A stretch of DNA of 64,000 bases from Eledone cirrhosa (Eukaryota): assembly GCA_964016885.1 (NCBI GenBank), contig OZ024740.1, positions 174,406,001 through 174,470,000 on the forward strand. The letters are read 5' to 3'. The notes beneath the pieces are model-generated. The model did no database searches. It had not been told where the DNA came from and saw only the letters and a list, made by a program, of their open reading frames with translations. Positions 8,142 to 62,575 of the stretch are shown here, piece by piece (positions within the stretch are counted from its first letter, which is position 1; the number at the start of each line of letters is the position of its first letter). The translations under genes and the position numbers were made by a program.

Positions 8142-8762
8142 TAAACAATTAAGTTAAAAATGTACATCCACATATGTATACTGAAATACTAGTATGCATA
8201 TGAATACACACACGTGTACATATGTAGATGTACCGAGTTTTTCACTGGTCACTTTACTGTGAGTGTCCAGCTATTCTGTATGTAAACACACAGACAAACC
8301 GGTTTTTATCGTCTCCGTTGAACCGGTACGTACTCACGCTCTATGCAAATTAGTCTGCCCACTACTAATTTTCATAGAAAAAGCATATAACGATATGTGC
8401 TTTTACGATTCTCTAGAAAGGCCGGAAGATAGGTAAATATTGCTGATGAGATGTAACAACATCGAAACTAGTCCAATATTCCTTGTCTGGCTTTCTGGAG
8501 AATAGAGGAAAGGTGATGTATGACTCTAAAAACCGGTTTGTCTTTGTGTTTACATACAGAATAGCTGGACACTCACAGTAAAGTGACCAGTGAAAAACTC
8601 GGTACATCTACATATGTACACGTGTGTGTATTCATATGCATACTAGTATTTCAGTATACATATGTGGATGTACATTTTTAACTTAATTGTTTAAGCGTCA
8701 GTCATACAAAAGTGAGTTACAAACGAAACGAAATTTAATTTCGTTTCGTTATTTGTTTTTAT
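8142..8762 (+). mobile_element. Retrozyme-like element: one ~460-bp monomer plus 5' inverted arm
   Basis: ~8302-8762 is homologous to the 469-bp unit at 58311-59207. 8142-8307 is the reverse complement of ~8527-8693. Flanked by (TA)n on both sides. Confidence 0.85.
8436..8480 (+). ncRNA. Canonical minimal type I hammerhead ribozyme
   Basis: aatattg-CTGATGA-gatg taacaa catc-GAAA-cta-GTC-caatatt. Perfect 7-bp helix I, GUC cleavage site, ACTAGT palindrome. Confidence 0.92.
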
Positions 8763-10230: not shown

Positions 10231-10250
10231 ATATATATATATATATATAT

Positions 10251-10725
<475 letters not shown>

Positions 10726-48482: not shown

Positions 48483-48718
48483 GCATTTGCTACAGAATTG
48501 ATATGCCTTCACTGCCATAGACGTGTGTATGCCTGTGAATATCAGTTCGTGTTCATGTGATCTATGATTGCGTGAATTTATGTTTATAATCGTAAGAGTA
48601 CTAAGTTATCTGTATGTCCGAGTTAGTGTGGCCGTGCCCGTGTGTGTACAAACGTGTATAGGAATTTATGCATGCCCCCCCCCCCCTCTCTCTGTATATA
48701 TATATATATATATATATA

Positions 48719-48825
48719 TAACAAAGAAAGTGTGGTAAGGAATCAGGTGGACCATAACGCATCAGAGTACTCGGATCTAACTGTCGAAACGGCCGGAGCT
48801 CAGCCGTCGGGGTCCTGACTCTTTT

Positions 48826-53395: not shown

Positions 53396-53442
<47 letters not shown>

Positions 53443-53533
53443 CAAAGGAATTGTGGAAAGGAACCAGATGGACCATAACGCACCAGAGTACCCAATACTT
53501 AGGGTAGTGGAGTGGGAAATAGGAAAAGGTATG

Positions 53534-53631
53534 ACCCCGAAGGCAGAGCTCAAGCCGTTTCGACGGCTATTTCTGGACTAAATTAGAATTTTTAGCCTGG
53601 TGAATAAATAGCCGAACTTGTCAAGAGGGTA
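53534..53631 (-). ncRNA. Variant hammerhead (UUGACAA core) in inverted pLTR
   Basis: Minus strand reads accctc-TTGACAA-gttcggctattt...aaatagccgtc-GAAA-cggc ttgagctct gcc-TTC-ggggt. The triplet is GTC in the sister copies at ~2247, ~48806 and ~56940. Confidence 0.72.
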
Positions 53632-53878
53632 CTTTCATATATGGGAAGATTGTAGTTGTCAAGAGGATTGGTTAAAATTTGTTGTAAACACAAATAAGTC
53701 TATCATGGCATTTGGTGGCAGGTAGTGGTGGCTGAACTTGCCTGTAGAACAGTAGGCGATGGATTGGAGCGGTCAAGCGTTGAAAGTGATATGTATACAG
53801 CAGATTCTAAGGATAGTGTATGAAGTGGAGGAGGGTGGTAGTAGAATAGGTAAATCAAATGAGAGTAGGAGATAATAA

Positions 53879-55595
53879 GGCTAACCATTCGATTATCGAG
53901 GACATAAATCGAGATGGACAACAAATTACATCCAGCCTCGGGGTCGCCGACCACACTGAACCCCTAGACCCACGGACTCCCTACTTCACATTGAAGGACC
54001 ACAAATCCGACTGCGACCGCAAACCATCCATTAGGCTTATAAACCCAACGAAGTAGGACATAGGGAGAATCAGTAAAAAGATCCTAGACCGAGTTATACC
54101 AAAAGTTAAGCATAACGAGAGACTTAGCCTATGGGTCAGCACCCAGGAAGTAATCTCATGGTTCAGGAATATGGAGGACAAACGAGACACAAAATTCATC
54201 CCGTTTGACATAGAGAGTTACTATGCATCTATTACCTTACCGCTCCTTACGGCCGCCTTGGACTTTGCCGAAACACTCACACCCATCACTGACCTGGAAA
54301 GAAATATCATTCTCCACGCCAGGAAGACAGTCCTACTTTTCGACAACTCCAAGTGGATAAAGAGAGCTCCCGACTCCCCATTCAACGTCAGTATGGGCTC
54401 GACGGATTCGGCCGAGGTCACAGATCTTATAGGATTATTCCTACTATTTAACCTCACCGAAATGTTTCATGCATTCAGCGGTGGATTGTACCGGGATGAT
54501 GGGCTCCTCACCCTCAAAGGGTACAACCCCAGTAGTACAGATCGGGTCCGTAAACAACTAATCAATTTCTTCCGGGACTGGGGATTTAAAATCACCCTAC
54601 GAACGTCCCTAACCCGAGTCAATTTCCTGGACGTTACTCTTAACCTCGAAAATGATCTGTACTACCCATACAGGAAACAAAACGACAGCCTGCACTACAT
54701 CCACCGCCGCTCTAACCATCCTAGAAACATCACCAATAACATGGTTAAAAACATCTCCCTCCGCATATCTCGTTTGTCCGCTAATGAGCAGATATTCGAC
54801 GAACACGCGCCTCATCACAACGAGGCCCTAAAGCGGAGTGGCTTCCGGGAGGAAATATCCTTTTATCCATCTTCCCTTAGCGGAACCAGCTTGCGACACC
54901 GCCGCTCGCGCAACGTAACGTGGTTCAATCCTCCCCATAATGCCGAGGTGGCAACACCTATCGGGAAAATCTTCTTTAGACTCCTCGAAAAACACTTCCC
55001 ACTACAACACCGCTACCACAACATAATCAACAAAAACACCATCAAACTCTCCTACAGCACCACACCTAACTTCGCACAAAACATCGTCTACTCAAACAAC
55101 AAAAAACTTAACGCCTATGGAAGAAATAACCTAGACATCGGTGGAGAGCCGACCAGGAGGTGTAACTACCCTGATAGATCTACGTGCCTCCTCAACAGCA
55201 AAAGTCGAGAACGTAACGTGATCTACCAGTGCAACGTGAGGACGGACACCTTTCAACAAAGCTTATATAGGATTAACCGCGTGTGACTTCAAGACCCGGC
55301 TCTACGAACACCGACATATTTTCCGAAACGGCGACATGCCACTACACTTTCGGGCCACATCTGGGACCTCCAAGATAATAATATAACCTACAATCTCACT
55401 TGGAGCTTACTGTCCAGAGCTAACTCTTACACGGGTGGATGTCGTCCGTGTAATTTATGCTCGGGGGAAACATTACAAATGTTGTTTTCGAAGGAACAAC
55501 TCGTAAATAAGAAAGACGAACTGGTAACCGCATGCAAACACAGATTGCGTAGGACTTACCTCGCCCTCAAACCCCATAATGACCCGGGTGGGTAG
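53879..55595 (+). pseudogene. PLE reverse transcriptase-GIY-YIG ORF, 5'-truncated and disrupted
   Basis: TLKDHK...RLINPTK*DIG, FDIESYY, MGSTDSAEVTDLIG, GLYRDDGL, VNFLDVTL, WFNPP, NVIYQC..YIG (frameshift ~55250), CNLC...CKH. Confidence 0.9.
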
Positions 55596-56372
55596 ACAAG
55601 GGCTGATACCCCCCCCCCCCACTTGCCGAATAAGTTAGGGGAAACCCCAGCTTACTTAGGTAGATGTATCTCCTTTCTTTTCTTTTCCTCTTTGTCTTCT
55701 TCTTCCTCCTGTCTCATTCTATCACTCCTTCCACCCTCTATTTCCTTCCTCGTCTGCTTTTCCTCTTTCGCCTACCCCAATGCAGCCCATCGGGCCTCTG
55801 TAGCATCAGTTCCACCACCCCTGTAATTTTAAGATAGAATTGGCCGAATACGTTTTACTAACTACTTATAGCAGACGTGTTAAACCCCCCTAATTTTGTA
55901 TCAGTTCTGGTACTACTCAATTTCTACAAGTTTTTTCTAATCTCAACTTATTAACCTGTAATTGTAAGATAGCAGTGTGATTTTTTTTTTATTCATTTCT
56001 CACTATCTAATTTTAGATATTTTTTTATTTCTTTCCATTATCTTTTATTGTCTCCTACTCTCATTCGATTTACCTATTCTATAACATCCCTCCTCCACTT
56101 CATACACTATCCTTAGAATCTGCTGTATACATATCACTTTCAACGCTTGACCGCTCCACTCACCCCCCCCCCCTATTGTTCTACAGGCAAGTTCAGCCAC
56201 CCCTACCCCCCACCAAATGCCATGATAGACTTATTTGTGTTTACAACAAATTTTAACCAATCCTCTTGACTACTACAATCTTCCCATATAAGGAAGTACC
56301 CCCTTGACAAGTTCGGCTATTTATTCACGAGGCTAAAAATTCTAATTTAGTCCAGAAATAGCCGTCGAAACG

Positions 56373-56751
56373 GTGTGGTATCTGTCAGGGTTGACGAAGT
56401 AGAAGTTTCCAGTTTGGTCCGAGTGCACCATGATGTCGTTGGTGTTTTCATACTCTGTTATTTTGCTACGGAGTTGTAGGAATCTGTTGTGTCTGGGTTT
56501 GAATTTAATGCTCTTGACCAGGTGGCAAAGGTTGTTCTCGAAGGGTGAGAGCATAGGGTTCGGAGGGGGATATTTGTAGGTATTGAATCCGAATCTCTCC
56601 TTGGGGTCGAAGTCCTGATTGTCGCGGTATCTATCGTAGAAAAAAGTTCTCTATCTTAGTCTTTTCGCAAAAAGGTCGATTTTTTGCGTGAGCATCCGAA
56701 GGTGGAACTGGGATGTCTTTGGTGGAGAAGTCAATGTTGTGTTTTCGCATC
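56373..56751 (-). pseudogene. PLE family-1 ORF N-terminus (inverted)
   Basis: Reads MRKHNIDFSTKDIPVPP..., then FGFNT..PP.PMLSPFENNLCHLVKSIKF...VHSDQTGNFY, directly downstream of the pLTR end on the minus strand. Confidence 0.75.
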
Positions 56752-56971
56752 GTGCGGGTGAAGAAACTTGAGCTGGGTAGAAAAGTCGGGATATGGCGTG
56801 GTAGAGTCGAAAAGTGCTCCACTACAGAGATAGGAGCTAAATAACAAAGGAATTGTGGTAAGAAACCAGATGGACCATAACGCACCAGAGTACTCAATAC
56901 TTAGAGTAGTAGAGTGGGAAATAGGAAAAGGTATGACCCCGACGGCAGAGTTCAAGCCGTCGGGGTCATAC

Positions 56972-57640: not shown

Positions 57641-57647
<7 letters not shown>
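57300..57647. mobile_element. Decayed relative of PLE family-2 terminus, with inverted arm
   Basis: 57347-57500 resembles 13035-13170, including a decayed hammerhead. 57570-57645 is a decayed inverse copy. TA flanks. Confidence 0.6.
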
Positions 57648-57694
<47 letters not shown>

Positions 57695-58029
57695 GCATAG
57701 AACGTGAGTCATTGTACGCACCGGTTCAGCGGAAACGATAAAAACAAATAACGAAACGAAATTAAATTTCGTTTCGCTTCTAACTCACTTTTGTATGACT
57801 GACGCTTAAACAATTAAGTTAAAGTGTACATCTACATATGTATACGCAAGTATTAGTATGCATATAAATACACACATGTATACATATGTACATGTACTCA
57901 GCTTTTCACTAGACCATTTACAGTGAGTGTCAGCTAGTCTGTATGTAACCACACAGGCGGACCGGGTTTTAGAGTCATACGAGTTTTCAAGGAAACACAT
58001 TTCCTCTATTCTCCAGAGGGCCAGACAGG

Positions 58030-58074
58030 AATATTGGACTAGTTTCGATGTTATTACATCTCATCAGCAATATT
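58030..58074 (-). ncRNA. Canonical type I hammerhead ribozyme
   Basis: Minus strand reads aatattg-CTGATGA-gatgt aata acatc-GAAA-cta-GTC-caatatt. Confidence 0.93.
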
Positions 58075-58474
58075 TACCCATCTTCCGGCTTCTCTGGAGA
58101 ATTGTAAAAGCACATATCGTTATATGCTTTTTCTATGAAAATTAGTAGTGGGTAGACTAATTTGCATAGAACGTGAGTCATTGTACGCACCGGTTCAGCG
58201 GAAACGATAAAAACAAATAACGAAACGAAATTAAATTTCGTTTCGCTTCTAACTCACTTTTGTATGACTGACGCTTAAACAATTAAGTTAAAGTGTACAT
58301 CTACATATGTAAATTTAATTTCGTTTCGTTATTTGTTTTTATCGTTTCCGCTGAACCGGTGCGTACAATGACTCACGTTCTATGCAAATTAGTCTACCCA
58401 CTACTAATTTTCATAGAAAAAGCATATAACGATATGTGCTTTTACAATTCTCCAGAGAAGCCGGAAAATGGGTA

Positions 58475-58519
58475 AATATAGCTGATGAGATGTAATAACA
58501 TCGAAACTAGTCCAATATT
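58475..58519 (+). ncRNA. Canonical type I hammerhead ribozyme (one helix I mismatch)
   Basis: aatatag-CTGATGA-gatgtaataacatc-GAAA-cta-GTC-caatatt. Confidence 0.9.
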
Positions 58520-58943
58520 CCTGTCTGGCCCTCTGGAGAATAGAGGAAATGTGTTTCCTTGAAAACTCGTATGACTCTAAAACCCGGCCCGCCTGTGTGG
58601 TTACATACAGACTAGCTGACACTCACTGTAAAGTGTCTAGTGAAAAGCTGAGTACATGTACATATGTATACATGTGTGTATTTATATGCATACTAATACT
58701 TCCGTATACATATGTAGATGTACACTTTAACTTAATTGTTTAAGCGTCAGTCATACAAAAGTGAGTTAGAAGCGAAACGAAATTTAATTTCGTTTCGTTA
58801 TTTGTTTTTATCGTTTCCGCTGAACCGGTGCGTACAATGACTCACGTTCTATGCAAATTAGTCTACCCACTACTAATTTTCATAGAAAAAGCATATAACG
58901 ATATGTGCTTTTACAATTCTCCAGAGAAGCCGGAAGATGGGTA

Positions 58944-58988
58944 AATATTGCTGATGAGATGTAATAACATCGAAACTAGTCCAATATT
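58944..58988 (+). ncRNA. Canonical type I hammerhead ribozyme
   Basis: aatattg-CTGATGA-gatgtaataacatc-GAAA-cta-GTC-caatatt. Confidence 0.93.
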
Positions 58989-60672
58989 CCTGTCTGGCCC
59001 TCTGGAGAATAGAGGAAATGTGTTTCCTTGAAAACTCGTATGACTCTAAAACCCGGTCCGCCTGTGTGGTTACATACAGACTAGCTGACACTCACTGTAA
59101 AGTGTCTAGTGAAAAGCTGAGTACATGTACATATGTATACATGTGTGTATTTATATGCATACTAATACTTCCGTATACATATGTAGATGTACACTTTAAC
59201 TTAATTGTATATATATATATATATATATCTTTCTGATTTGAAAAAGAAACAATATTCTGTCCGTTCAGTCAATACCATTCTGATTTGGAAGACTATGTCT
59301 GTCTTCCTTTTCATAAATAATCCTGAGTTCCGCATGTCACTGATGAAATCCAGTAAAAATGCGTATTTGTGATGACAATTCTAATCTTTATTTTATTCAT
59401 TACCAAAACTATAAATATAAATTAGACTGAATAGAATCTAAAGTTGATTTTACTTTGAATAATAACGAAATAGGAAATATATTTTCCCCTCAGCCCCACC
59501 ACACTCCGCATAATGAGACCAATCAAAACGAAGTTCAACGTTATTGTTGAGTGGGATTATTTTTACAATCACTTAGAAAGTATAACTGTCTGTCGAGATC
59601 CAAAGATGAATATGTTAGTGATTTTTCCGTTCAGATTTCGCTGAATTATATCATAGGAAGTATATTGAGTTACATAATTGTATTCTTGAAAAAATTCAAC
59701 AAAAATTAATAAATGACGAATGGGTTGCTGACGTTGATTAAACTAACTTGGATGATGTATTTCCGGTTCTTTTTTGAAGTATAAGAAATACGTGTAGCTT
59801 TTCAGGAAGTAACGGCAGATCAGATTTTTAAATAGCAAGTAATAACGACCAATTACAACATAAATTCGTCTCCACTCACCACTTTCCCAACAAATTCACA
59901 ATCAGAGATTTCAGGAAATTTTCAAACAAACATCAGTTCATTTAATATGAATCTTTTGTTTTCTTTCAAATATGAGAAAATAGCGTAAAATCGAGTGTGC
60001 GGAAAATATGCTCCATAAAGACTGTTGCAAAGTACAAGCTATCTACCAGATTCTTCTGTAATAAAATATTTTTTCTAAACTGTCAAAACGTTACGACAAT
60101 ATAATTTATTTCTTAATTTCTACAATTGTTGTTTTTCATAATTACAAATGATAAATAGTCAATGATAAAGTTATAAATATTCATAGTTTTGACGAAACAC
60201 GTGATTTGTGGTCCATTTCATTACTCGCTGATATAACCTCAGAACAAAGAAATGCATCTGTATCATTGCTCAATTTAATCTGTTTGGAAATCCTGACCTA
60301 AGTGTCAAAGAACGAGAAGAGAAGAACATTTGAAAATAACTTTTAAAAGTAGGCCATGCACGCTAATAAAGAATCTTATAGGAAATCGAATCAAAAATAC
60401 TTTACAGATGAAAAGAAATTGGAGGAAGCTATCATATCATATTGTTTGACTCATAAATGAGAAATAATCAACAAAAAGTATTCAACTATCTCAAATATCT
60501 TATTGCTTTAATAAGAAACTTCTTGATTTTGCTTCCATGTTGTACTGTACGTCGGACCTGTTCAAGTAACATATCAGTTGCAAGCCTTTCGTTGAAACCT
60601 TCTCCATTTCTGAAAAATGTGACGCTGTGAGCGGTCTTCCACGACTCCTAAAGACCGAAAGATAAAGAAACA

Positions 60673-62180: not shown

Positions 62181-62575
62181 AATTGTTTCTACTTTAGGCA
62201 CAAGGCCAGCAATTACCCAGTGCATTACTGGTACTTTATTTTATCGACCCCCGTAAGGATGAAAGGCAAAGTCAACCTCGGCGGGATTTGAACTCAGATC
62301 GTAAAGGGACGTAACTATGCTGGAAAGCATGGCGTCCGACCCTCTACCGATACTGCCAATCCACCGCCCTTTTATTATAATTATTAATGGCAGTGGATTG
62401 GCGGTATTGGTAGAGAGACGGACACCATGCTTTCGACATAGAGTTACGTCCCTTTACGGACTGAATTCAAATCCCGCCAAGGTTAACTTTGCCTTTCATC
62501 CTTACGGGGTCGATAAAATAAAGTACCAGTAATTTACTGGATAATTGCTGGCCTTGTGCCAAAAGTAGAAACAAT
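62181..62575. mobile_element. Two full SINE copies head-to-head (62181-62369 minus; 62389-62575 plus)
   Basis: Both have an A box, B box, core and (ATT)n tail. A ~19-bp AT spacer separates the heads. Confidence 0.92.

Follow-up and report, generated by a model that had tools for sequence, protein, structure and literature searches.

A young 469-nt hammerhead retrozyme family of Eledone cirrhosa with paired Penelope-type ends and a U6-like box

The 64,000-nucleotide stretch of Eledone cirrhosa DNA analysed here (the window) holds, between two (TA)n microsatellites, a pair of arms that diverge from a single inversion junction and are built from a 469-nt unit (Table 1). Tandem Repeats Finder returns a period of 469 with 1.9 copies and 99% matches at 58311-59208, and the arms are inverted relative to each other over 550 and 505 nt at 99% complementarity. 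A preliminary description had reported diverging arms of a 469-nt unit at 57690..59207 that part near 58311, consist of near-identical units, lack an ORF and end on both outer sides in (TA)n. Each of these points stands: the arms comprise 1.33 and 1.92 units and meet on the shared base 58311, the right arm carries 3 internal differences and the left arm 4, the longest ATG frame in a concatemer of the unit is 64 aa, and (TA)n occupies 57644-57690 and the sequence from 59208. The monomer has a GC content of 37%, folds with a z score of -8.8 against 60 shuffles and is 69% paired as a circle. The left end of the window copy (unit 348) is atypical for the family and an exception to the two-site rule described below. 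Rfam miRNA matches were discarded as AT-rich hairpins scoring far under gathering; a near-perfect long inverted repeat with SINE-like sequence at 62308-62450 of the window also gives rise to sub-threshold matches of this kind.

Table 1. Features of the window copy (positions in the window; unit numbering follows the complete monomer).
Feature	Position	Strand	Remarks
Left (TA)n target microsatellite	57644..57690		
Left arm	57689..58311	-	1.33 units, unit 195->348, 4 differences; end within U6-like box
Type I hammerhead	58030..58074	-	predicted cleavage after 58037; core at 58067
U6-like box and TATA-like word, left arm	58119..58168	-	
Inversion junction	58311..58311		single base common to both arms
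Right arm	58311..59208	+	1.92 units, unit 268->227, 3 internal differences; ends at site B
U6-like box (58381-58392) and TATA-like word (58423-58430)	58381..58430	+	unit 338-387
Type I hammerhead	58475..58519	+	predicted cleavage after 58512; core at 58482; stem I mismatch at 58480
Complete 469-nt monomer	58513..58981	+	bounded by predicted cleavage sites; reference for unit numbering
13-bp hairpin and U-rich tract	58772..58811	+	family end site A (unit 296-300), internal in the window copy
U6-like box (58850-58861) and TATA-like word (58892-58899)	58850..58899	+	
Type I hammerhead	58944..58988	+	predicted cleavage after 58981; core at 58951
Family end site B (unit 224-231)	59205..59211	+	right arm stops here
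Right (TA)n target microsatellite	59208..59228		

Three CTGATGA..GAAA cores lie on the sense strands of their arms, as had been claimed, at 58482 (+), 58951 (+) and 58067 (-), the first of them in a hammerhead (58475-58519) whose stem I is interrupted by a T>A change at 58480 that worsens the fold (z -0.17 vs -2.06). The search with hammerhead models that had been proposed recovers all three, with matches to Rfam Hammerhead_HH9 and Hammerhead_1 at E values of 7e-5 to 8e-3, every one of which falls under the gathering score. Helix III has 2 bp and the palindrome ACUAGU. Judged by this 2-bp helix closed by a palindrome the hammerhead is assigned to the dimer type, a form with a short helix III described in PMC4209133, and in the dimer the double hammerhead evaluates at -17.8 kcal/mol, within 1.4 of the dimer minimum of -19.2. 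The core and stems are kept between this family (family A) and a sister family, B, only ~70% alike. In stems I and II, 5 of 14 pairs have changed on both sides between the two, and in the A/B alignment 90.5% of the stem cells are paired as against 26-47% in slid controls, a covariation that, resting on effectively two lineages, is read as support and not as a p value. The antisense strand of the unit contains no hammerhead core. The preliminary label of an RNA "replicon", in the sense of RNA-to-RNA copying, finds no support, since the core is confined to the sense strand. Further hammerhead-like motifs unrelated to families A-C were seen at L048 (5594 and 6065, -), L034 and L058, and one such motif recurs at a spacing of 471 nt.

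An exact 26-nt hammerhead word of the unit occurs 3,088 times in the 3.0-Gb genome and its reversed control 0 times, while a genome search with the unit itself gives at least 397 matches (38 of 536 candidates scored). The loci are dispersed across many contigs with copies at 99%+ identity, and in the best-scoring set arms reach 14.7 units at 99.3-99.8%, so that the genome-wide copy count called for earlier returns a dispersed young family. Classified by its sequence, the window feature is one insertion of this young, dispersed family of non-LTR retrozymes. Older subfamilies, at 85-95% to the unit, are also present. One of their copies lies in the window itself at 8142-8762 (85-87% to the unit), with diverging arms that stop in (TA)n at sites B and A, and its single hammerhead core lies at 8443. 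Family B has periods of ~420-510 and 27,805 exact 21-nt hammerhead words. A decayed third family, C, with a period of ~290, is found at ~10250-10600 (-) of the window and near 800 (-) of L049, and combines a U6-like box, a TATA at +43, a palindromic helix III and an altered hammerhead core with an end in (TA)n. The unit had been placed at the upper size limit for retrozymes. Sizes of 150-450 bp are given in PMC7229834, and consensus lengths in bioRxiv 10.64898/2026.07.22.740005 run from 51 to 972 bp, a range inside which 469 nt lies, and the claim of an extreme size does not hold.

The 3' ends of the family's arms lie in one of two places, site B (unit 224-231) or site A (unit 296-300), and from there run on into (TA)n. 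In the best-scoring set of 36 loci (34 fetched and 2 in the window), 20 have one arm per site, 11 are single-armed and 5, among them the window copy, have one odd end. A second, positional set of 36 loci, drawn from the first 100 matches listed on C1 (38 stretches, less one duplicate and one overlap), contains 19 mixed pairs, 11 single-armed loci and 6 that are odd or complex, including L307, which has two junctions and site B at each outer end. Every single-armed locus in both sets (11 + 11) ends at A or B. The older copies (30 stretches, 85-95%) contribute 11 mixed pairs and 1 B/B. Across two-armed loci with both ends at these sites, mixed pairs account for 50 of 51, with 1 B/B and 0 A/A (p ~2e-14 against independence), and in family B the ends fall correspondingly at ~211-220 and 270-275 of that family's unit. 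The inner (5') ends are scattered; those within 5 nt of the cleavage site number 2/38 and 0/40 in two sets each chosen to contain at least one intact cleavage junction. No target duplication is visible at the (TA)n insertions. This near-exclusive mixed pairing suggests that one RNA is engaged by two reverse transcriptase subunits with different start sites.

A 391-base section of one unit was compared with contigs of four runs of unrecorded kind. In one of these runs, X2, 12 contigs show site A running into (TA)n, and the X2 and X6 contigs are mostly older-subfamily variants. A 499-nt contig of X1 that closes on itself at a period of 469 was rejected as evidence for circles, since a tandem array gives the same. 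At L053-L054 and L307, two diverging pairs are connected tail to tail at the site A hairpin (unit 261-287), so that the array has four arms.

The same genome carries several families of coding Penelope-like elements (PLEs). A remnant at 54057-55595 of the window belongs to a Hydra-type family whose frames are 784 aa long and whose period is 3,528 bp; Pfam gives no match within the remnant. Broken copies of this family occupy 53436-56960, 1400-2354 and 48715-48772 of the window at ~84% to its young members, with a stop at 55284-55286 and rearranged arms. Young copies (loci L099-L118, e.g. G000:C2:51271000-51289900) are 99.5-99.9% alike, and first-look candidates number 62,988. The element carries the RW, DKT and CxCx5C motifs of the Hydra clade (PMC8557442). 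In 8 of 8 two-armed loci where both ends are visible, its diverging arms stop at element positions 31 and 110-114; it also builds arrays of 3.5-kb units, and its hammerhead, read by eye, is a variant with apparently a U3-A8 core. At one of its loci (L103, 2171-5742) a 55-bp piece of the ORF forms a tandem array of more than 60 copies at the inversion junction. A second type has 900-905-aa frames and two ends ~45 apart, and in families of a third type the ends lie ~40 apart; judged by their motifs these are provisionally of Poseidon and Neptune type, respectively. All three types share the (TA)n target with the unit.

No clear sequence is shared between the unit and the PLEs at the loci compared (30 Hydra, 20 GIY-YIG and at least 2 Poseidon), where similarity is limited to TA-rich sequence and to separate retrozyme copies. 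The tail between the two end sites measures ~70 nt in the unit and 83 in the Hydra-type element of this genome, as against the 30-40 described for EN+ PLEs. A non-exhaustive helper search found an 11-nt word common to the family B end and a Neptune-type end. At L293 (2153-5890) an arm running to site A is followed, across an inversion, by 41 nt of unit and a 5'-truncated Neptune-type element that continues to its own (TA)n end. This locus is possibly a chimeric insertion, and it could equally be a later Neptune insertion accompanied by a deletion. As candidate helpers, the Hydra type is indicated by its youth and tail length and the Neptune type by the putative chimera and the 11-nt word, and the Poseidon type would also qualify.

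The ATGCAAAT box followed by a TATA-like word lies upstream of the hammerhead in families A and B. The box itself is kept in families A, B and C, with the TATA-like word 41-43 nt on as against 46-48 nt in host genes. Of 48 U6 matches, 15 loci were fetched, and the box at -79 to -77 with a TATA at -30 is present in two single loci and in an array of 11 copies; in one array copy (L200) the box is displaced by an insertion, and L207 and L208 have none at that place. The box also stands upstream of the best of 6 fetched U6atac loci and of the single RNase MRP gene, and is absent upstream of the 5 weaker U6atac copies, 15 U2 loci and the RNase P gene. A matrix built from these five Pol III genes (U6 at three loci, U6atac and RNase MRP), in which the 12-nt box lies at -79 to -77, scores the unit at 17.2 bits, within the 11.9-18.7 of the genes in leave-one-out, and 3 of 2,000 shuffles score as high, in a test designed after the box had been noticed. 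In 0.8 Mb of masked flanks, 8 of 9 box matches fall inside families B and C. The predicted start, at unit 410-417, lies just before hammerhead stem I. The first run of four or more T after it lies at site A in A1, B and C, and the older copy has an earlier T5. A T4-free stretch from predicted start to site A would suit a terminator there, but 644 of 2,000 shuffles give the same and it is not significant; a match to a distal element (ACTTCCG, unit ~186), which the older subfamily lacks, was set aside.

Taken together we interpret the unit as a young 469-nt non-LTR retrozyme with one hammerhead per unit, likely copied into (TA)n by a PLE enzyme, a reading to which we give a probability of about 0.8. 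That the element is a non-LTR retrozyme moved by a Penelope-like reverse transcriptase had been put forward in the preliminary description and is well supported by the dispersed arrays, one type I hammerhead per unit, covarying stems, the missing ORF and the PLE-type ends. PLE enzymes likely mobilise these retrozymes, the genomic evidence being the two-site pairing common to the unit and the coding Hydra-type element. In vitro, a PLE protein nicks both strands of AT-rich DNA, starts at two internal RNA sites and is a predicted dimer (PMC11167929). For that protein no strand difference in start site was seen, whereas the retrozyme pairing suggests one site per subunit on one RNA.

In the cycle we propose, a promoter in one unit, probably the U6-like box and TATA-like word with a start near unit 410-417, would drive transcription through the next units. 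Neighbouring hammerheads would pair through the palindromic helix III and excise 469-nt monomers, which would then be closed into circles by ligation, as modelled on the retrozymes of coral, mussel and axolotl. A dimer of PLE protein would bind one RNA and nick both strands of a (TA)n tract, each subunit presumably starting reverse transcription at its own site (unit 224-231 or 296-300) and going round the circle or following an uncut multimer. Microhomology would then allow the two cDNAs to be joined head to head, which would account for the observed diverging arms with one end per site.

The likeness of the ends to those of PLEs admits the reading that the unit is a mere terminal repeat (pLTR) of a coding PLE and its arrays truncated by-products. 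This case had been named earlier as one that would overturn a retrozyme. Xenopus retrozymes do resemble PLE pLTRs (bioRxiv 10.64898/2026.07.22.740005), the end pattern equals the PLE pattern, 41 nt of unit abut a 5'-truncated Neptune-type element at L293, and the PLE candidates scored amount to ~100 of 62,988 and 89 of 37,186. However the arrays reach 15 pure units, and in 72 loci whose flanks were compared with PLE proteins no unit is the repeat of an ORF. An RT/GIY-YIG frame continuous with the unit was found in none of the 72 except at L293, where the join is in mid-ORF, and the PLE that flanks L055 on its 5' side points away. With the Hydra, GIY-YIG and Poseidon loci showing nothing in common with the unit but TA-rich sequence and separate retrozyme copies, we consider a pLTR origin improbable. 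Still less credit is due to a Helitron-type non-autonomous rolling-circle DNA element or a plain satellite in which the hammerhead is incidental: the AT-rich target, the tandem units and the terminal hairpin close to one end would suit it, but the arms are head to head, their variable inner and two paired outer ends match those of the coding PLEs of the genome, the hammerhead stems covary and the loci are spread over many contigs.

Within the retrozyme reading two templates come into question, as reading through the cleavage site for many units requires a circle or an uncut multimer. The circle is favoured by analogy with the three animal retrozymes tested in PMC7229834, in which circles dominate the RNA. 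The same retroelement and PLE enzyme could instead use an uncut linear multimer read from the arrays, with the hammerhead acting rarely or late and arrays growing by local duplication. Variants are confined to some adjacent units at L039, L048, L051 and L061 and alternate at L046, and this patchiness leaves no clean circle signature and fits linear multimers or later duplication. In addition the anole PLE acts in vitro mainly on uncut RNA, and its ribozyme required protein (PMC11167929), only 1 of 9 vertebrate retrozyme dimers cleaved in vitro (bioRxiv 10.64898/2026.07.22.740005), the Hydra-type element forms arrays of its own 3.5-kb unit, and the inversion junction at L053/54 is duplicated. 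Against this stand the conservation of hammerhead core and stems between diverged families and locus-private variants that span both arms (A348G is present in nearly all units of four arms at L053/54 and of both arms at L064), and without a circle the arrays would be expected to shrink each round. We regard the uncut template as rather unlikely.

A similar weighing applies to the promoter. Because the box matches the host U6, U6atac and MRP box and not that of U2, and is accompanied by a TATA-like word, a Pol III type 3 arrangement is predicted, and box and TATA-like word are likely a captured Pol III promoter. The box might instead be a plain octamer enhancer or an RNA element, with transcription by read-through or Pol II. 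Its core is the POU octamer; the TATA-like word comes 3-7 nt closer to the box than in the genes, where the spacing is 46-48 nt; the absence of T4 runs carries no significance; and retrozymes seem promoterless according to a review (PMC7761336). What speaks for Pol III is the position of the 12-nt box in five Pol III genes and its absence from the U2 and RNase P upstream regions examined, the concentration of flank matches in sister families B and C, and the recurrence of the box upstream of each following hammerhead with the TATA-like word between. On this balance the octamer or RNA-element reading comes close to an even chance. A U6-type Pol III promoter lies outside the transcript and is normally lost on retroposition. 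We tentatively propose, at somewhat less than even odds, that a superfamily of more than 30,000 retrozyme units captured a host U6-type promoter, the tandem or circular form carrying it along: read-through RNA would be cut to a circle, and a PLE dimer copying round that circle, with a subunit at each of the two start sites, would restore the promoter before the next unit. If true, an arm that stops at site A would amount to an entire gene, with promoter, hammerhead, body and terminator.

The unit resembles the metazoan non-LTR retrozymes of coral, mussel and axolotl (PMC7229834; bioRxiv 10.64898/2026.07.22.740005) in its tandem non-coding monomers with one type I hammerhead each, GC below 45%, high self-pairing, lack of an LTR and PLEs in the same genome. 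It differs in its (TA)n target and U6-type box; inverted two-armed insertions with paired fixed ends, present here, are not described for those retrozymes in the sources consulted, and the word "inverted" is absent from PMC7229834. With EN+ PLEs (Hydra, Neptune, Poseidon; PMC8557442, PMC11167929) it shares partial tandem and inverted insertions, two end sites, (TA)n targets and a hammerhead in the repeat, inverted copies with a tail at one end being PLE hallmarks (PMC8557442), but it has no ORF and no sequence in common with any PLE examined. The non-autonomous Chlamys elements (MRC1; PMC8557442) resemble their autonomous partners at the 3' end, unlike the unit and the PLEs examined, and most Chlamys elements are described there as being without the canonical hammerheads that the unit has. 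Newt satellite 2 and the schistosome satellite are likewise hammerhead tandem repeats with their own promoter, cited in PMC2220036 as snRNA-type for Pol II in the newt and as Pol III in the schistosome; the box of the unit, in contrast, matches the host U6, U6atac and MRP box, not U2, with a TATA-like word. A literature search, with Repbase and Dfam (which may contain such repeats) outside its scope, yielded no cephalopod retrozyme, no U6-type retrozyme promoter and no paired PLE-type ends; the giant squid genome is reported to have 235 Rfam hammerhead-1 matches (PMC6962438). The class of retrozymes is known and the size ordinary, and it is the paired PLE-type ends and the U6-type box that add to the earlier description.

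For animal retrozymes, neither the mode of transcription nor the inserting enzyme is settled in the field. The published link to PLEs consists of co-occurrence and pLTR similarity, and the insertions described here carry the two-site signature of PLEs. A 469-nt non-coding RNA with mapped start sites offers a minimal substrate on which purified PLE protein could be assayed. A candidate promoter is provided by the U6-like box, and the U6 upstream box of the lineage emerges from the same comparison. Two further elements were seen upstream of the small RNA genes: the RNase P upstream region (L216) shares with U2 (L179-L193) a CAGTGG box near -60, and a CTCCCT-type element at about -260 to -290 is common to U2, U6 and RNase P.
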